A stretch of DNA of 64,000 bases from Candidatus Doudnabacteria bacterium (lineage in GTDB: Bacteria; Patescibacteriota; Doudnabacteria; UBA920): NCBI GenBank assembly GCA_031291995.1, contig JARLHZ010000025.1:156266-220265 (forward strand), given 5' to 3'. Under the pieces are notes generated by a model. It did not search any database. It had not been told where the DNA came from and saw only the letters and a list, made by a program, of their open reading frames with translations. Made by a program: the position numbers and the translations under genes. Below, piece after piece: positions 2,022-60,593 of this stretch; the first letter of the stretch is position 1, and the number at the start of each line of letters is the position of its first letter.

Positions 2022-2134
2022 GTGTCATTCCGGGCAGTAGCAGCCGAGTCGAGGAATCCCTTAAATTAATTAACTATCGAATGTTAAGGGATCCCTCCAC
2101 TCCCTCAGATGCATTCGGTCGGTCGGGATGACAC
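2022..2134. repeat. TIR repeat family 3 copy (gtgtcattccgg ... ccgggatgacac), immediately upstream of prfA
   Basis: Terminal inverted repeats gtgtcattccgggc / gtcgggatgacac, with an internal gagtcgaggaatccctta...taagggatccctcc palindrome. Related copies at 13575-13637, 13951-14026 and 44255-44395. Confidence 0.75.
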
Positions 2135-3215: not shown

Positions 3216-3230
3216 TTAGGTTTACGAAGT

Positions 3231-3288
3231 ACGAAGTTTTACGAACTTACGAAGTTCGTAAGTTCGTATTTGTTCGTACTTCGTAAAA
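3231..3288. repeat. Hairpin repeat family 1, copy 2, between prfA and prmC
   Basis: Same arms as 484-566 but lacks the central 15-nt ttagtgcacaaactt segment. Confidence 0.8.
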
Positions 3289-3291
3289 TAT

Positions 3292-6797: not shown

Positions 6798-6801
6798 AGG
6801 T

Positions 6802-6930
6802 AGTAATCGCGAAAATACGAATATTTTATAATATACGAAACCGTTCACTGTCAGCTGTCTTTTCCATTAAAGATAAGCTGACAACTAACGGTTTTGTATA
6901 TTAATTTAGATTTGTATATTTGCGACTACT
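6802..6930. repeat. MITE-like repeat family 2, copy A (degenerate)
   Basis: About 40-bp terminal inverted repeats agtaatcgcgaaaatacgaatatttt... / ...tttgtatatttgcgactact. The internal cactgtcagc...gctgacaact inverted repeat is shared with copies at 9053-9180 and 31141-31270. Confidence 0.8.
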
Positions 6931-6949
6931 ATTATGGTAGCATAATTTT

Positions 6950-8990: not shown

Positions 8991-9052
8991 TTTGGTTGTT
9001 GTTTTGTTATAGGTTTATTATAGCAAAGATATTGGATTTTTGGTATATTTAG

Positions 9053-9180
9053 AGTAATCGCTAATATACGAATCATTTATAATATACGAAGCGGTCCACT
9101 GTAAGCCGCCTGTTCTACGAAGTAATGCCTACAACTGACGGCTTCGTATATTAATTTTGATTCGTATATTCGCGATTACT
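9053..9180. repeat. MITE-like repeat family 2, copy B (best-preserved TIRs)
   Basis: agtaatcgctaatatacgaatcatttataatatacgaagcgg ... ccgtcttcgtatattaattttgattcgtatattcgcgattact, a near-perfect 40-bp TIR pair, immediately upstream of dnaE. Confidence 0.85.
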
Positions 9181-9199
9181 ATCGTGATTGCAAAAAACT

Positions 9200-12100: not shown

Positions 12101-12709
12101 CATTTGGGGATGTATGTGTCCGCGCACCCGCTGGACGTTTACCGCAAGGTTCTTTCTACCTTAAGGTCGGTTAAGAGCCTGTCATTAAACGAATTGGGGG
12201 CCAATGTGGTCATGGGTGGAATAATCTCGCGCCTAAAAAAAACCCTCACACGGAAAAACGATCCGATGGCCTTTTTTACCCTGGAAGACACAACCGGCAG
12301 TTTGGAAGTCCTTGTGTTTCCAAAGGTTATGGAAAAAGTCGTTCCCCTATTGGCCGACGACCGGATTGTCCAGGTAACGGGCCGGCTGTCCGATAAAGAT
12401 GAAGAGCTGAAACTAATTGCCGAAGACATTAAAGACTTACCCAACGACGAAGTCTACGGCATGGCGCTGTCGGAGATGGAAAAAAATAAGAGCGTTGTCT
12501 TGCATATGGAGCGTTTGGCCGGCATGGAAATATTAAACATCATCAAAGAAATTTTGCAAAAACACCCGGGCAATGTCCAAGTCTATTTGTCCGTCGGCAC
12601 CGGCCAATCTTCCAAAAAAATAAAAACCCAGTCGCTCGTCGCGATGAGTAATAAATTAATGGCGGAATTGAGGACGGTGCCGGAGATTGATATGGTAGAC
12701 GTGGACTGA
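9200..12709 (+). CDS. dnaE: DNA polymerase III alpha subunit
   Basis: PHP-domain N-terminus (HLHCHSHYSLLDG), polymerase core and C-terminal OB domain. Start moved from the track's TTG at 9188 to the in-frame ATG at 9200. Confidence 0.95.
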   Translation: MSFTHLHCHSHYSLLDGLSKIEPLVLRAKELGMASLALTDHGVMYGAVEFYNECKGAGIKPIIGMEAYIAPRTMADKEGKIDADYHHLILLAQNQAGYHNLMKLSTQSHLEGFYYKPRIDLALLKQYGEGLVCLSGCQRGEIARALMNRESGEAQKVLDKYLDIFGPERLFIEIQRNAKTEAAREEMLNGKLIALANANNLSVVATADCHYIYPEDAEAQDVMVCIGTGRTVNDTDRLDMREYDLSLKSPEKMRELFADVPEAVANTQKVADLCELEIELDQRYFPNVEIPDGKTAEQYVKEITNEKALILYGKDGALPQQVKERIDYEMEIICKKNFVTYFLMVADVVEGAHKIGAITNTRGSAAGSIVGRILGITNIDPLFYELPFERFLTMHRPTPPDIDLDIADNRRDEVVAYITQKYGRDKVAQIITFGTMMARAAVRDVGRALGVTYSKCDQIAKMIPLGKQGFHMTLDKALEMSPELKEIYARDPETRRILDIAKKMEGCARHASVHAAGIVITPTELTDYTPLQKEPDGEKIITQYDMYSLDVNTSGPKAVGVVKLDLLGIRNLSILETAVTLAQNRHNISIDIYNLPSQDAKTFKLLSDGLTFGVFQLGSSGMTRNLRELRPTNIFDISAMVALYRPGPMSIIPDYVARKNGRAKIEYFDPRMKSYLEKSLGLLVYQEDVLLTAIHIAGYSWEEADKLRKAMGKKIPAEMAKQKFKFTEGCVKNGMPRVRAEELFGLIEPFAAYGFGKAHAASYAMVSYQTAYMKANFPVEFMAALMTAESGDEDKIYEAVEECGHMGITVLPPDVNESLGDFTVVDDKTIRFGLNAIKNLGSDVIEKVIQIRVEGTGFREDNPENHPSPLTPHPFSSLEDFLIKSHTKNLNKKSWEALAKAGALDSFGERGQLLANTEDVLDFVRQHFKDENSGQNSLFGKSLQRGRLKLRAAAPATKEEMLVWEKEHLGMYVSAHPLDVYRKVLSTLRSVKSLSLNELGANVVMGGIISRLKKTLTRKNDPMAFFTLEDTTGSLEVLVFPKVMEKVVPLLADDRIVQVTGRLSDKDEELKLIAEDIKDLPNDEVYGMALSEMEKNKSVVLHMERLAGMEILNIIKEILQKHPGNVQVYLSVGTGQSSKKIKTQSLVAMSNKLMAELRTVPEIDMVDVD

Positions 12710-12725
12710 CCGCGGATACGCGGAT
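12708..12725. repeat. 18-bp direct repeat, left copy (gaccgcggatacgcggat), overlapping the dnaE TGA stop
   Basis: Identical 18/18 to 13515-13532. Confidence 0.8.
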
Positions 12726-12972
12726 GTTGGCATCAATAACGCAATGTGATAAATTTAACGCCGAGAGAAGTGTTGGGCTTCGTCTCGGCGTTTGGATACC
12801 GGGTCAGGCGGTTACCTCCAGCGACGCTTGTGGGCGTCGGCATGGGTGACTAAATAAATCAGCCCCACGATACGTGGGAAGAGAATGCCAATTACTGTCA
12901 GCCACGCTTTTGCCGGCGTGTTGTGAAACTCGACTTTTATATCCCGATCCGGGATATTTTGGAGATATGCGA

Positions 12973-13158
12973 TTAGCAATCGCACGCTTTTTCCTCCTGC
13001 GGCGGTTTTGCCGAGCGTTTGCCCGGCACGTGAAATAAATACACGTAGACCAGTAGAGCGAGGTCTGCCACCAGGCAGATTGAGCCGGGCAAGATATAGC
13101 CCATCGCCCATAACACCCCGCAGGACACAGCCAAAACGGTTACTATCAACATAATCAA
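12973..13158 (-). CDS. Possible small two-TM membrane protein (61 aa) inside the DR-bounded segment
   Basis: Two clear hydrophobic helices (IMLIVTVLAVSCGVLWAMGYIL, ICLVADLALLVYVYLF) and a charged tail. No homology assignable; it may be part of a frameshifted longer gene. Confidence 0.25.
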   Translation of the reverse strand: MIMLIVTVLAVSCGVLWAMGYILPGSICLVADLALLVYVYLFHVPGKRSAKPPQEEKACDC

Positions 13159-13514
13159 AATCTATTCCAATTAAGTGGTTTTTGCAAGCTGTCGGAATGT
13201 TTGTTTGGAAATCCTCTAAAATTATTGCCATAAATGCTTGTGGACAACGCTGTGTGGACAACGCTGTTGCGCCCTTTCCCAGAATTTGATATATTGTATG
13301 CAGTTCTTCAAACAGCGATCCGGCTACCAACCGGGGAGTTTGAGACAAATTGCAATAAATCTGTTATGTTCTAGAGCCATAACGGATGAAAAGTCTTTTG
13401 ATATCAAAATCAAAAGAATTCTGGGACGGAAACGTTCTGCGTAGCAGGGCCCCAGGTTTGAGTTATCAAGTAAATGATATCTCAACCTTGGGGCTTTTAC
13501 GTTTTATTTACAGA

Positions 13515-13532
13515 GACCGCGGATACGCGGAT
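13515..13532. repeat. 18-bp direct repeat, right copy (gaccgcggatacgcggat)
   Basis: Identical to 12708-12725. Preceded by a + strand hairpin with a T-run (ccccaggtttgag...ctcaaccttgggg cttttacgtttt, about 13455-13505). Confidence 0.8.
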
Positions 13533-13574
13533 CGGCCCGTATTGAAGGACGAAATCAATAAATGGCGCTTCCGT

Positions 13575-13637
13575 GTGTCATCCCGACCGAGGTTCGTCAA
13601 TGGAATTTAATGGACGGACGGAGCGGAGGGATCCCTT
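13575..13637. repeat. Family 3 repeat, partial copy (left TIR gtgtcatcccgaccgag + ggagggatccctta core)
   Basis: Shares the left TIR and central core with 13951-14026 and 2022-2134; the right TIR is missing. Confidence 0.65.
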
Positions 13638-13650
13638 ATCCTTCTAAATT

Positions 13651-13941
13651 ATGCAAGACAGCCAGTATTTTGTATACATAATGTCCAGCGTCAGCGGAAC
13701 CTTTTATATAGGAGTAACCAATGATTTATATAAAAGAGTTTACCAACATAAAAGTAATATAATCGAAGGTTTTACGAAAAAGTACGAATGCCATAAACTG
13801 ATATATTTTGAAGAGACTTCCGATATAGAGAGCGCAATTTTAAGAGAAAAGCAGTTAAAAAATTGGAATCGCAAGAAAAAAGAATTTTTAATCGCGACAA
13901 AGAACGCAATCTGGAAAGATTTAAGTTTAGATTGGAAATAA
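13651..13941 (+). CDS. Small GIY-YIG nuclease-domain protein
   Basis: YFVYIM...GTFYIGVTNDLYKRVYQHK is the GIY-YIG motif; 96 aa. Flanked by family-3 repeat copies. Confidence 0.75.
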   Translation: MQDSQYFVYIMSSVSGTFYIGVTNDLYKRVYQHKSNIIEGFTKKYECHKLIYFEETSDIESAILREKQLKNWNRKKKEFLIATKNAIWKDLSLDWK

Positions 13942-13950
13942 ATTATTAGT

Positions 13951-14026
13951 GTGTCATCCCGAGCGAGTGCAGCCGAGTCGAGGGATCCCTCCGCTCGTCG
14001 GCTGCACTCCGCGGTCGGGATGACAC
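13951..14026. repeat. Family 3 repeat, 76-bp imperfect palindrome (gtgtcatcccgagcgagtgcagccgagtcgagggatccctcc...gtcgggatgacac)
   Basis: Blocks gtgtcatcccga / gtgcagccga / gggatcc are mirrored on both arms. It lies between the GIY-YIG gene and the thrS start. Confidence 0.8.
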
Positions 14027-14043
14027 ATAATGGAGATACGGGT

Positions 14044-15798
14044 ATGGATATAAATCAGCAATTACAAAACAAACGCCATTCGCTAGCGCACCTTTTGGCC
14101 GCGGCGGTAATTAAGTTGTATCCCGGGACTAAAAGAACCATCGGACCCGCGATTGATAACGGATTTTATTATGATTTTGAGTTTAAGGAGCCGATAACCG
14201 AAAAGGATTTGCCGAAAATCGAGAAAGAAATGAAAAAGCTCCAGAAAACCTGGTCGGCTTTCGAGCGCCGGGAAATAACGGCGGACGAGGCGCGCGATAT
14301 TTTTAAAGACAACCCTTATAAGTTGGAACTCATCGACGAATTTTCCAAAGAAGGCCAGACTTTGACCATGTATAAGTCCAGCCAGTACTTTGAAGATTTA
14401 TGCCGGGGCGGCCATGCCGAGGATATGTCTAAAATAGACCCCGAGTCTTTTAAGCTGTCCAAAGTTGCCGGGGCTTACTGGCGCGGTGACGAAAAAAATA
14501 AAATGCTGACCAGAATTTACGGTCTGGCCTTTGAAACTAAAGAGGATCTGGATAAATATTTAAACATGCTGGACGAAGCGGAAAAAAGGGATCATAAAAA
14601 ATTAGGCCCCGCCTTGGATTTATTTGTGTTTTCAGATTTGGTCGGCGCCGGCTTGCCGCTGTGGACGCCCAAAGGAACGCTGGTGCGCAATTTGCTGGAT
14701 GATTATGTATGGAGCCTGCGCAAAAGTATTGGTTATGAAAAAGTGGAAATTCCCCATATTACCAAAAAGGAATTGTACGAAAAAAGCGGCCATTGGGATA
14801 AATTTAAGAACGAGCTGTTCAGGATTACCACGCGCGAAGGCCATGAATTCGCCATGAAGCCGATGAATTGCCCCCACCACACGCAGATTTATGCAAGAAA
14901 ACTATTTAGTTATCGCGAGCTTCCCCAAAAATATTCCAACACGACAACATGCTATCGCGACGAGCAGACCGGCGAACTTTCCGGCCTTTCCCGTGTGCGG
15001 GCCTTTGCCCAGGATGATGCCCATGAATTTTGCCGCTTTGGCCAGGTAAAGCAAGACTTGGGCGATATTTGGGATAAAGTGGTTGAACCATTTTACGGCT
15101 CGTTCGGCTTTAAATTAAAATTGCGTTTATCGTTGCACGACCCGGCCCAGCCGGAAAAATATTTGGGCGGCCAGGAGCGCTGGCAACAGGCCGAAAGCAT
15201 ACTTCGGGAGTTGGCAAAAGAAAGACATGTAGAGTTTGTTGAAGCTCCCGGGGAAGCGGCTTTTTACGGGCCAAAGCTGGATTTTATGGCCATGGATTCA
15301 TTAGGCCGGGAGTGGCAAGTGGCAACTATCCAGCTCGATATGAATATGCCGGAACGTTTTGATTTATATTGTATTGACGAACAGGGCCAGCATGAGCGAA
15401 TTGTCATGCTGCATGCGGCTATTATGGGCTCAATTGAAAGATTCTTGTCTATATTAATTGAACACACAGCGGGCACTTTCCCGCTTTGGCTGTCCCCTGT
15501 CCAGGTGGCGGTATTGCCGATTGGCGATAAGCAGATTGAGTATGCTAGAGATACAATTAACAATTTACGATTAACAATTAACACGTTAAGGATTGAATTG
15601 GACGACCGGGCGGAATCCATAGGCAAAAAAATCCGCGAAGCCACTTTGCAAAAAATTCCTTACCAGTTAATAATCGGCGAAAAGGAAACCGAAGCCGGCA
15701 AAGTCGCTGTCCGCTTGCGCGACGGCACCAATTTGGGTCAAATTACCGTAAAGGAGCTGGCCGATAAAATAGAGTCGGAAATTGCAAATAAATTATAA
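14044..15798 (+). CDS. thrS: Threonyl-tRNA synthetase (lacks the N-terminal TGS domain; starts at the editing domain)
   Basis: HSLAHLLAAAVIKLYPGTKRTIGPAIDNGFYYDF matches the ThrRS N2 editing domain; class II catalytic core and C-terminal anticodon-binding domain follow. Start taken at ATG 14044 (MDINQ), downstream of the palindrome that the track ORF runs through. Confidence 0.9.
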   Translation: MDINQQLQNKRHSLAHLLAAAVIKLYPGTKRTIGPAIDNGFYYDFEFKEPITEKDLPKIEKEMKKLQKTWSAFERREITADEARDIFKDNPYKLELIDEFSKEGQTLTMYKSSQYFEDLCRGGHAEDMSKIDPESFKLSKVAGAYWRGDEKNKMLTRIYGLAFETKEDLDKYLNMLDEAEKRDHKKLGPALDLFVFSDLVGAGLPLWTPKGTLVRNLLDDYVWSLRKSIGYEKVEIPHITKKELYEKSGHWDKFKNELFRITTREGHEFAMKPMNCPHHTQIYARKLFSYRELPQKYSNTTTCYRDEQTGELSGLSRVRAFAQDDAHEFCRFGQVKQDLGDIWDKVVEPFYGSFGFKLKLRLSLHDPAQPEKYLGGQERWQQAESILRELAKERHVEFVEAPGEAAFYGPKLDFMAMDSLGREWQVATIQLDMNMPERFDLYCIDEQGQHERIVMLHAAIMGSIERFLSILIEHTAGTFPLWLSPVQVAVLPIGDKQIEYARDTINNLRLTINTLRIELDDRAESIGKKIREATLQKIPYQLIIGEKETEAGKVAVRLRDGTNLGQITVKELADKIESEIANKL

Positions 15799-31140: not shown

Positions 31141-31270
31141 AGTAATCGCGAATATACAAATTTATTATTAATATACGAAGCGGTACACTGTAAGTTAATT
31201 TTTCTATTTTGATCGGCAGACAACTCTTGGTTTCGTATATTAATTTAAGATTCGTATATTCGCGATTACT
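31141..31270. repeat. MITE-like repeat family 2, copy C
   Basis: agtaatcgcgaatatacaaatttattattaatatacgaagcgg ... ggtttcgtatattaatttaagattcgtatattcgcgattact. It fills exactly the spacer between two minus-strand genes. Confidence 0.85.
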
Positions 31271-31619
31271 AGTTGACCCTGGTTAAAAACAGTACCGCGG
31301 AAAGTAAAATAAACTCCACAAAAAAACTTACCAGCGCGCTTAACGCGGCCAAAAAATCCTGCCTATTCTTAATTGCTCGAAAAAGAGTGAAATTAACAAT
31401 TAAGATTGCCATTCCAATAGCCGGAATAAAGTAGAGGTTCCGACCCGGCCCATACCATAAAACCCCGACTAATACGTTATAATGAAGCGCAAGAGGGCTT
31501 TGACCGGGTTTGATTTTGAAATAAAGGAACAAAAATGTTATAATGTTAAGCGTTAAGGATAACGCCCAAAGAAACCAAACATTTCTGAAATAGTTTTTTA
31601 TAATCGAAATAAAATCCAT
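31269..31619 (-). CDS. Small multi-TM membrane protein (possibly GtrA-like)
   Basis: Three to four hydrophobic helices. Start placed at the internal ATG to avoid overlap with the divergent GT39 gene; start uncertain. Confidence 0.4.
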   Translation of the reverse strand: MDFISIIKNYFRNVWFLWALSLTLNIITFLFLYFKIKPGQSPLALHYNVLVGVLWYGPGRNLYFIPAIGMAILIVNFTLFRAIKNRQDFLAALSALVSFFVEFILLSAVLFLTRVN

Positions 31620-44254: not shown

Positions 44255-44395
44255 TTGTCATTCCGGCCAAGCAGAATTTAAGCAGTATTTTTCGAGTCGA
44301 GAAATCAATTAAATTTTGTGATTTTCTTCGTTAAGGGATCGCTCCATGCGGCCCGATACTGATGTTCTAATGGCGGGTCTTGGTCGGGATGACAC
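44255..44395. repeat. TIR repeat family 3 copy (ttgtcattccggcc ... gtcgggatgacac)
   Basis: Collinear with the 2022-2134 copy: shared blocks gtcattccgg, cgagtcgag, ttaagggatc.ctcc and ggtcgggatgacac. Confidence 0.75.
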
Positions 44396-57849: not shown

Positions 57850-58138
57850 AATATGATATTCCTGCTTTAGCTGCCTTTATAATACCATTTGACGAGATTC
57901 CTTTAAAGCCTCTTTCGGCACCTCAAACCACTCCGGGTTTTCTTTGTAAATTATCCTCAATTTCTGTATATAGCCATCAATAGCCCAATACCAGCGGGGC
58001 TTTCGTGGTTCGAACTTCCGGAGGTCTCCACCGCCACACTTCGCTAAAGCTTCGTGTGGCTTTCAGCCACTCACTTGCAAGGTTTAGCGAAGTGTGTCAC
58101 CCATAGCTTAAGCGACGGGTGACAGTAATGAGTTTAGT

Positions 58139-58375
58139 ATGTACTATGTTTATCTGCTAAAACTATCCAGCGGTAAAATCTACACCGGCTCATCGCCCGA
58201 TTTAAAACGCAGAATCCCTGAGCACGAGAAAGGTAAATGTGAGGCCACAAAAAACTTCCGGCCGTTAAAATTATCTTGGTACTGCGCTTTTGAAACCAGG
58301 CTTCTAGCCAGACAGTTTGAAAACTATCTGAAAACCGGTTCAGGGCAAGCATTTAGAAATAAACATTTTGCTTAA
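58139..58375 (+). CDS. Small GIY-YIG nuclease-domain protein, second copy
   Basis: MYYVYLLKLSSGKIYTGSSPDLKRRIPEHE is the GIY-YIG motif; 78 aa. Confidence 0.7.
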   Translation: MYYVYLLKLSSGKIYTGSSPDLKRRIPEHEKGKCEATKNFRPLKLSWYCAFETRLLARQFENYLKTGSGQAFRNKHFA

Positions 58376-58403
58376 AACACCAATATATATTTGGTGGTTT
58401 TTT
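58374..58403 (+). terminator. Terminator hairpin after GIY-YIG gene (aaaacaccaa-tatatat-ttggtggtttttt)
   Basis: Stem plus T6 run. Confidence 0.6.
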
Positions 58404-58560
58404 CTTACACAAAGGGTAGTGCAAAACCAGAAATGATAAAAATTTCGGCCTTTTACCCATTTTAGCCTTGACTTTTCCGGAGTTTTTGTAAATTTCAAGC
58501 CTTGCCAGCGGTGGGCCTCGTTTTTATGGGCGATAAATATGTACAAGGTTTTTAAATAAC

Positions 58561-60055: not shown

Positions 60056-60061
60056 ATGGCT

Positions 60062-60115
60062 TTCTACTAAATACTAAAAGATACTAAAGATACGAAATAC
60101 TAAACTTGAGATACT
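60062..60115. repeat. Left 54-bp terminal inverted repeat of GxxExxY cassette 1 (tctactaaatactaaaagatactaaagatacgaaatactaaacttgagatacta)
   Basis: The reverse complement of 60535-60588 matches it along its whole length, with a few mismatches. It overlaps the stop codon of the enclosed gene. Confidence 0.8.
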
Positions 60116-60501
60116 ATGTTGACTATTCGTTTACATACCACCCCTGTCTTGGTAAAGTTAGCCAGTATGCCAAGTTTGACATGCTCCAATTTGATATAAT
60201 CACTGAGCTGTTTAATATTTTTTATTCCGAAATTTTCGTGTTTCTTGATCTCCAAGATAATTTTGGCTTCGCCAATTTTGATTAGAAAATCCGCATAATA
60301 AATTCCGATAAACTTTCCCTCGTAATATAGCTTGATTGGATGTTGCTCAACAAAATCAATCCCAGCAAGTTTTAGAGCAATTGCAACAGCTTTTTGGTAA
60401 TGTTTTTCCAATAACTCGCCGCCCAGGTCTTTAAAGACCTTTATCAGAATTCCTACGATTTTATAATATTCATCTTTATAAACCAGGTCTTCCCTTAACA
60501 T
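60100..60501 (-). CDS. GxxExxY-family protein (PD-(D/E)XK nuclease-like), cassette 1
   Basis: YKIVGILIKVFKDLGGELLEKHYQKA N-terminus (GxxExxY motif G-E-L-L-E-K-H-Y); 133 aa. Inserted between atpD and atpC. Confidence 0.7.
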   Translation of the reverse strand: MLREDLVYKDEYYKIVGILIKVFKDLGGELLEKHYQKAVAIALKLAGIDFVEQHPIKLYYEGKFIGIYYADFLIKIGEAKIILEIKKHENFGIKNIKQLSDYIKLEHVKLGILANFTKTGVVCKRIVNIVSQV

Positions 60502-60534
60502 TTTCGTCTATTATTTTTATTTTCGCAAATATCT

Positions 60535-60588
60535 GTACTATCTAAGTTTAGTATTTAGTATATTTAGTATTCTTTCGTATTTAGTAGA
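60535..60588. repeat. Right terminal inverted repeat of GxxExxY cassette 1
   Basis: tactatctaagtttagtatttagtatatttagtattctttcgtatttagtagag is the reverse complement of the left TIR. Confidence 0.8.
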
Positions 60589-60593
60589 GAGGA

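Follow-up and report, generated by a model that had tools for sequence, protein, structure and literature searches.

An ssnA-like GIY-YIG nuclease gene and its hairpin repeats upstream of thrS in a patescibacterial genome

What is a gene for a 96-amino-acid (96-aa) GIY-YIG nuclease doing between hairpin repeats directly upstream of thrS? This arrangement is found in a 64,000-nt stretch of a Candidatus Doudnabacteria genome, which we analyzed as a whole and refer to as the window. A first-pass annotation of this DNA had proposed that the hairpin is the recognition or homing site of the nuclease and that gene and repeats form an autonomous unit of the homing-endonuclease type. We found that the locus very probably consists of an SsnA-family nuclease gene and its cognate Ssn-related-motif (SRM) hairpin repeats, and that the same gene-plus-repeat layout recurs across bacterial phyla. 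The elements of this system in the window, with their coordinates and strands, are as follows.

13651-13941, + strand: ssnA-like gene, encoding a 96-aa single-domain GIY-YIG nuclease assigned to the Ssn family
13576-13633, + strand: upstream SRM-like unit, with a TGTC tag, the stem ATCCC...GGGAT followed by C, and a 44-nt variable interior
13952-13987, + strand: forward SRM-like unit, left half of the downstream palindrome, found with a structure-aware pattern
13984-14025, - strand: reverse SRM-like unit, right half of the palindrome and inverted partner of the unit at 13576
2023-2133, arms 2023-2058 (+) and 2090-2133 (-): gene-less head-to-head SRM dimer with a 31-nt A+T-rich spacer
About 44256-44395: degenerate gene-less SRM dimer, its right terminus GGTCGGGATGACA intact and both outer stems mismatched

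The bracketed GIY-YIG open reading frame (ORF) of the first-pass annotation is real, as both Pfam and the repeat statistics given below confirm. Pfam PF01541 (GIY-YIG) matches residues 5 to 77 of the 96-aa protein with E=9.9e-17, and Pfam found no domain in it besides this one. The system that it resembles was described by Chenal et al. (Nat Commun 16:2388, 2025, PMC11893778), who showed that SsnA of Neisseria meningitidis, a 94-aa GIY-YIG protein, binds an oriented repeat, CGTCATTCCCGCGMAVGCGGGAATCYRG (NTS/SRM), solely when the DNA is single stranded, with cleavage a few nucleotides upstream of it. In that study, binding of the flanking hairpin and adjacent cleavage were demonstrated for four Ssn members, and the characterized SsnA proteins cut single-stranded DNA and left duplex DNA uncut. 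The three bases before the stem govern cutting by SsnA, the C after the stem governs binding, and mutation of Y6, Y17, or E64 abolishes cleavage (PMC11893778).

When the window protein was used in a tblastn search of PLSDB, it matched an N. gonorrhoeae chromosome with E=6e-21, which is below the E<1e-10 against Neisseria SsnA that Chenal et al. used to define Ssn homologs by tblastn. Pairwise comparison with the gonococcal SsnA orthologue gave 51% identity over 91 aa (E=3e-31). The gonococcal ORF is 94 aa long with Y6, Y17, and E64, as the paper gives for SsnA, and the window-protein residues that align with these, Y9, Y19, and E66, are invariant among 18 homologs. Eight canonical repeats lie within 1 kb of the gonococcal ssnA ORF. 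We also noticed that two complete N. gonorrhoeae chromosomes (2.17 Mb each; NZ_CP119140.1, our locus L166, and NZ_CP119142.1) are filed as plasmids in PLSDB and that the ssnA region is unannotated in these chromosome records. A sequence search of the PDB with the window protein returned no Ssn structure, the nearest entry being UPF0213 protein 1zg2 (E=2.5e-6); an NCBIfam search gave nothing useful (grpIintron_endo at 16.2 bits, with a cut-off of 56); and Neisseria was absent among the best 120 matches when a Burkholderiaceae homolog served as the query. By these comparisons, the 96-aa protein is a true, full-length member of the Ssn family; it is also under selection, as shown below.

Beside the gene, the first-pass annotation had recognized a half copy and a full palindromic copy of a repeat. 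The repeats are present as described, and the labels need correction: the supposed half copy at 13576-13633 is one complete repeat unit, and the supposed full copy downstream (13950-14027) is a head-to-head dimer of two units around GGGATCCC. The upstream unit stops 17 nt short of the ssnA-like ATG, and its ATCCC/GGGAT stem is present in the minimum-energy DNA fold. The reverse unit of the downstream pair terminates 18 nt ahead of the true thrS start at 14044, which agrees with the public gene call of 584 aa. The GTG at 13951 that the ORF lister gave as the thrS start is a read-through of the downstream palindrome, and the mechanical ORF starts of both thrS (13951-14043) and prfA (2109-2145) fall inside repeat arms, so that these false starts would append repeat-encoded peptides (e.g., ...SSRASAAESRDPSARRLHSAVGMT...) to proteins that really start at 14044 and 2146. 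The coxA reading frame of a Candidatus Liptonbacteria metagenome-assembled genome (MAG) discussed below likewise extends into a left arm.

The repeats are far more frequent in the window than expected by chance. The exact 12-mer GTGTCATCCCGA occurs five times, at 2123(-), 13575(+), 13951(+), 14015(-), and 44384(-), compared to an expectation of about 0.008 (128 kb, both strands), and with up to two mismatches there are 7 occurrences where 2.7 are expected. We also used a structure-aware arm pattern, which comprises a GTC tag, a stem A-T-x-y-z, 4 to 70 nt, the complementary stem, and then C. This pattern found arms at 2023-2058(+), 2090-2133(-), 13576-13633(+), 13952-13987(+), and 13984-14025(-), compared to 0.3 in Markov simulations; all five have GTC before the stem and C directly after it, and TGTC is followed by AT in every one. 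The published degenerate SRM pattern, HGTCWYN(0-2)YYVSBRHN(0-5)WNVSBRGN(0-2)RNCYNB, has no match in the window because these units exceed the interior length that it allows. The window repeats are thus a long-loop (long-interior) SRM variant that keeps the GTC tag, the A-T-first stem, and the C after the stem. Loop identity is dispensable in the SRM, and the loop may be extended or split (PMC11893778), a tolerance that counts in favor of reading the long-interior units as SRMs. As single-stranded DNA, the downstream palindrome (13946-14032) folds at -37.4 kcal/mol (z=-9.8). The long hairpin that forms between the fused arms would leave the GTC tag base-paired within a duplex, so the structure that is recognized may differ from that in Neisseria. 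The stability of single window arms is unremarkable (z of about 0) and therefore uninformative, so we used covariation across loci instead.

The window protein has thousands of relatives, the closest of which are in Patescibacteria. A homolog scan with one genome per species gave more than 600 matches, from which we kept 80 loci that span Acidobacteriota, Gammaproteobacteria, Clostridia, Chloroflexota, Omnitrophota, Bacteroidota, Patescibacteria, and others. At nearly all of these homologs, TGTCATyCC... is found just 5' of the start codon and ...GGrATGACA right after the stop codon, with the following counts.

TGTCATYY within 150 nt upstream: 54/78 loci (69%)
RRATGACA within 200 nt downstream: 56/79 loci (71%)
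Both motifs: 45/77 loci
Either motif on either flank: 69/77 loci
Background, 200-nt windows of the same loci: 52/1568 and 40/1568 (about 3%)

The association between nuclease gene and flanking hairpin that had been suggested from the window is therefore general, since the homologous genes elsewhere carry the motif on either side (54/78 and 56/79) far more often than the background does. The stem types vary from arm to arm (ATTCC, ATCCC, ATTTC, ATCCT, ATTCT, ATCTC, and others) and the stems covary, with 169 of the 553 tags in the 80 loci having their own 5-nt stem complement, compared to a mean of 50.8 and a maximum of 70 when stems were swapped. Of these 169 arms, 140 have C directly 3' of the stem, which matches the published importance of that C for binding. 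With a generic inverted-repeat score on gene flanks, 42 of 79 loci fell above the 99th percentile of controls; this score is less clean than the motif test because ORF ends are imprecise and neighboring repeats interfere. All six of the close Patescibacteria homologs that we inspected have repeat arms beside the gene, five of them by a strict scan and the sixth (L081), with imperfect stems, by reading. Chenal et al. reported a repeat near 71% of Ssn homologs and on both sides of 42%. Their SRM pattern matches 19 of our 80 loci and none of the window arms, whereas a relaxed pattern (tag, stem, and trailing C, with a longer interior allowed) matches 55 of the 80, so the published 71% association is probably an underestimate.

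Beyond the thrS locus, the solo hairpins that the first-pass annotation had placed at 2022 and 44255 do exist, the first as a dimer with a spacer and the second as a degenerate dimer. The dimer at 2023-2133 lies immediately upstream of prfA (start 2146) and folds at -20.7 kcal/mol (z=-3.0); the one at 44256-44395 lies just 3' of pheS and escapes the strict stem test. In the gene-less dimers, the spacer opens with TTAA(A) or AATTAAA and in this resembles the short leader 3' of the left arm in copies that carry the gene. Altogether, the density of SRM repeats in the window is four loci per 64 kb. The window also contains other palindromic families (471-577, 3221-3290, 6801-6945, 9037-9196, 31141-31271, and 60060-60591) that are unrelated to SRM and rich in TACGAA or AGTAATCGCGAA...TATACGAA, some of which form long dimers immediately 5' of genes, dnaE (9188) among them. 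Separately, a noncoding block at 13296-13500 (+) is highly conserved in the syntenic contig L081, with 30 nt in a row identical, and at its end has a covarying hairpin, CCCCAGG...CCTTGGGG, and after that a T-rich tract; it has no Rfam match and may be a small RNA gene or leader. The ssnA unit sits between this block and thrS. At the gathering threshold, Rfam found three tRNAs and nothing else in the whole window, and permissive Rfam scans of 13400-14200, 12700-13660, and 57850-58450 gave chance-level matches only.

When compared with the known Ssn system, the window has a single-domain GIY-YIG protein of about 95 aa in which the mutagenized residues are conserved, a gene flanked on both sides by oriented GTC-tagged hairpins with an A-T-first stem and then C, and gene-less repeats scattered in intergenic DNA. 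It differs in its patescibacterial host, in a repeat interior of 22 to 44 nt rather than the 4- to 5-nt loop of the published SRM, and in its low repeat density. The tags also differ in orientation, since they face outward in the window and in most loci, like terminal inverted repeats, whereas those of the nearest Neisseria repeats face toward the gene. Counting against the assignment to SsnA and SRM, then, are the published pattern, which misses the window and matches 19/80 loci, the z of about 0 for single arms, the outward tags, and the presence of only four repeat loci in 64 kb. On balance, homology (51% identity to gonococcal SsnA and the four characterized members) makes it very likely that the hairpin is the recognition site of the adjacent nuclease, as the first-pass annotation had proposed.

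The units also resemble a repeat class defined before its enzyme. Di Nocera et al. (2013, PMC3733652) described "CGTC-tagged REPs," in which the tag is often TGTC and the stem begins with A-T and T-A; these repeats are mostly head-to-head dimers and include Neisseria dRS3 and Rickettsia RPE-4/6. The window units share the TGTC tag, the A-T/T-A stem start, the intergenic position, and, mostly, the head-to-head dimer form. The defined families have an 8- to 9-bp stem, a 4- to 5-nt loop, and a CCA tail, whereas the window units have a 5-bp outer stem, a 22- to 44-nt interior, and a CCC tail. Di Nocera et al. concluded that CGTC-tagged REPs lack a dedicated enzyme, a gap that Ssn now fills; flanking repeats go unmentioned in a 2006 survey of GIY-YIG proteins. 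A second parallel is RAYT with REP/REPIN (TnpA_REP), where a small nuclease gene likewise lies between inverted tagged hairpins that are also dispersed genome-wide, recognition takes place at a single-stranded hairpin, and the gene is usually single copy and vertically inherited. In contrast to the GIY-YIG fold of the window protein, RAYT is an HUH Y1 tyrosine enzyme that uses a GTAG tag and is kin to a known transposase, so the resemblance is one of arrangement, not descent.

The position of the unit was informative about its history. In contig L081, whose protein is 86% identical to that of the window, the same arrangement is found upstream of thrS. Between the two genes, pS is 0.885 (saturated) and pN is 0.072, giving a pN/pS of 0.08, and the termini of the repeat arms are identical. 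Low pN/pS and identical termini despite saturated synonymous change show that the gene and repeat ends are under selection and that the position is old. Homologs that are 74 to 78% identical to the window protein are found elsewhere, between tmk and thyA (in two organisms, L082 and L170), between coxA and coxC, after dprA, and between a hypothetical gene and dus, all with arms. A shared old position together with relatives at other sites indicates that movement occurs but is rare on this time scale.

Two of these loci drew our attention for other reasons. In L173 (1270-2794), an ssnA homolog with 77% identity directly follows dprA, whose product handles incoming single-stranded DNA in transformation; this is a single case, and the adjacency may be a coincidence. 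The Candidatus Liptonbacteria MAG (L084, 2939-5742) has three different small GIY-YIG genes within one cytochrome oxidase operon, one in the coxA-coxC interval, one in the coxC-coxD interval, and one after a UbiA-family gene. The middle one belongs to the second GIY-YIG family described next and lies between the two halves of a perfect 12-nt inverted repeat, CCCGTTAGAGAT / ATCTCTAACGGG.

The window contains a second small GIY-YIG gene, which the first-pass annotation had linked to the first through a related hairpin motif.

58139-58375, + strand: second GIY-YIG gene, 78 aa, Pfam GIY-YIG E=2.8e-14
58035-58124, + strand: hairpins upstream of the second gene, -33.6 kcal/mol, z=-5.7

The gtgtcaccc...gggtgaca hairpin on which this link was based is present. 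Its kinship with the SRM proved superficial, since relatives of this hairpin vary in the stem and conserve the loop, and what had been taken for a related motif is another hairpin beside a gene of another family. BLASTP detected no similarity between the 78-aa protein and SsnA, and profile-to-profile comparison of the second family with the Ssn set showed only the shared GIY-YIG core. The family profile of the 78-aa gene instead matched PDB 1zg2 (UPF0213) with E=4e-12 and SLX1 with E=6e-5, and its likeness is to UPF0213/SLX1-like proteins (PDB 1zg2, 1ywl, and 7cq2). The second gene therefore lies outside the Ssn system, in a UPF0213/SLX1-like family that is widespread in Patescibacteria.

The hairpins of this second family are associated with tRNA genes; the stretch concerned in the window is 57990-58375. 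In the window, the loop motif GWAGCYTTRGCGAA occurs at 58039(-), 58078(+), and 58103(+) and nowhere else, these copies adjoin an apparent decayed tRNA 3' end, and the last hairpin before the gene has the form TGTCACCC-N14-GGGTGACA (58095-58124). We collected 80 metagenome loci of the family (L086-L165) and scanned 60 of them with ARAGORN. In most of the 60, the gene lies 90 to 200 nt downstream of a same-strand tRNA gene, mostly for Ser and also for Leu, Tyr, Lys, Cys, or Arg, and often a further tRNA gene lies 3' of it. The hairpins, with the conserved loop GWAGCYTTRGCGAA and variable stems, occupy the interval from the tRNA gene to the start codon: among the roughly 73 loci with upstream flank, a forward copy of the motif is present in 40 and a reverse copy in 43, compared to only 4/78 and 1/78 downstream of the gene. 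In an alignment of 30 sequences, compensatory changes were found in 8 of 9 pairs, and the stem of the first hairpin, which carries the reverse copy, incorporates the tRNA 3' end. The two families keep to their own hairpins, with the SRM tag in 2/80 second-family loci and the GWAGCYTTRGCGAA loop motif in 3/80 ssnA loci. More broadly, the notion of a separate hairpin for each small GIY-YIG family is borne out. We found no description of this second nuclease-hairpin pair, and no published link of the UPF0213/SLX1-like group to tRNA-adjacent hairpins, in the literature searched, and no Rfam family matches it. In L127 and L128 (1987-2060), ARAGORN called a tRNA with anticodon CTA (labeled Pyl) in a Patescibacteria tRNA cluster downstream of the second-family gene.

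What, then, does the ssnA unit do, and does it move? The one biological role shown experimentally for the family is in Neisseria, where SsnA lowers transformation by repeat-bearing DNA and an ssnA knockout raised transformation 5-fold in an NTS-dependent manner (PMC11893778). By analogy with N. meningitidis, the window pair could be a host-domesticated single-stranded-DNA restriction device that trims repeat-bearing transforming DNA and so modulates recombination around flagged genes, a possible reading that we nonetheless regard as doubtful. It would accommodate the strong purifying selection on the window gene, its stable placement, and the close homolog adjoining dprA, although that adjacency is one case. 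Natural transformation is not established for the host organism, the window has four repeat loci in 64 kb compared to the hundreds of copies in the genome where the role was demonstrated, and the role outside Neisseria is called unknown by Chenal et al.

We also consider it unlikely that the SRM-ssnA-SRM unit is actively and autonomously mobile, as an element of the IS-like or homing kind, with the nuclease cutting at the outward tags to mobilize it and with the gene-less dimers as excision footprints or MITE-like derivatives. The layout does recall terminal inverted repeats, most loci having their tags at the outer ends, and an IS-like architecture was remarked by Chenal et al., who proposed NTS-ssnA-NTS as a domesticated IS-like element behind repeat expansion, and drew the RAYT analogy, as a hypothesis in their Discussion only (PMC11893778). 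Homologs with 74 to 86% identity occupy five unrelated contexts (thrS, tmk-thyA, coxA-coxC, dprA, and hypothetical-dus), single MAGs can hold two copies (L001 and L002; L006 and L014), a Moranbacteria protein and a Burkholderiaceae protein are 69% identical, and the dimer spacers resemble the leader of gene-bearing copies. However, none of the ends that we inspected shows a target-site duplication, the activity of the family is single-strand cleavage with no known strand transfer or ligation, and the window has a single copy of the gene. Exact-protein look-ups returned only the same strain with the same arrangement and no empty site. L081 has the unit at the thrS position too, although synonymous sites between the two genes are saturated, and L082 and L170 both have it at tmk-thyA, so any movement is rare.

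The proposal of a homing site in an autonomous homing-endonuclease-like unit fares worse than that of a recognition site. Homing endonucleases such as I-TevI and T4 Seg do share the GIY-YIG catalytic domain and are likewise small, selfish-looking genes among housekeeping genes, but they have a separate DNA-binding domain, cut the empty allele as duplex, and do not recognize their own flanks. The window protein is the catalytic domain alone, with no extra DNA-binding domain, and the Ssn family cuts single-stranded DNA only; the stable placement upstream of thrS (pS 0.885, pN/pS 0.08) also speaks against homing. A resident nuclease-repeat partnership therefore fits better than an active homing element, and an IS-like origin or occasional transposition is compatible with the data.

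A more sweeping reading joins both families into a general class of mobile or semidomesticated elements, each a stand-alone GIY-YIG nuclease with its own hairpin. SRM-ssnA-SRM units with outward tags would be true transposable units with the 96-aa single-strand nuclease as "transposase" and the gene-less dimers as MITEs, and Patescibacteria would have a second, undescribed pair, the 78-aa UPF0213/SLX1-like nuclease and a hairpin with conserved loop and covarying stem docked on tRNA 3' ends; we think this improbable. Least credible of all is that the hairpins simply serve neighboring genes as terminators or regulatory elements and lie near a GIY-YIG gene by accident. Every copy is indeed intergenic and abuts a housekeeping gene (prfA, thrS, or pheS), but the palindromes have no T-run after them and no terminator-scan match, for which we rejected the terminator reading, and they have no Rfam match. 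The cross-phylum association, in which tagged arms occur beside homologs about 20 times as often as in the background, already contradicts this reading.

For the preferred reading, an SsnA-family nuclease with cognate SRM repeats, homology to the four characterized enzymes predicts how the pair would work. The 96-aa protein would bind the hairpin of one repeat strand, only in single-stranded DNA, and would cut the tag-bearing strand a few nucleotides 5' of the tag, leaving duplex DNA and RNA uncut. With less certainty, the pair in this genome may be a partnership of nuclease and repeat that resides in the genome and is inherited vertically, comparable to RAYT and its REPINs, in which the nuclease could act on repeat-carrying single-stranded DNA, such as incoming DNA or replication or repair intermediates, and may have spread the gene-less repeat dimers beside prfA, thrS, and pheS.

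That a nuclease recognizes a hairpin flanking its own gene was published in 2025, and the window adds no new principle to it. New here are a documented patescibacterial member of the Ssn family and the finding that the long-interior form of the repeat is common. The locus also illustrates an evolutionary mode in which gene and repeat termini have stayed conserved at a single chromosomal site even as synonymous changes became saturated, with close relatives located elsewhere, a domesticated, rarely moving picture that fits the data better than active homing does. Ssn enzymes have been put forward as programmable tools for cutting single-stranded DNA, which makes variant pairs of repeat and enzyme, such as this one, candidates for new specificities. 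The tRNA-linked second family is a more original lead than the Ssn locus itself.
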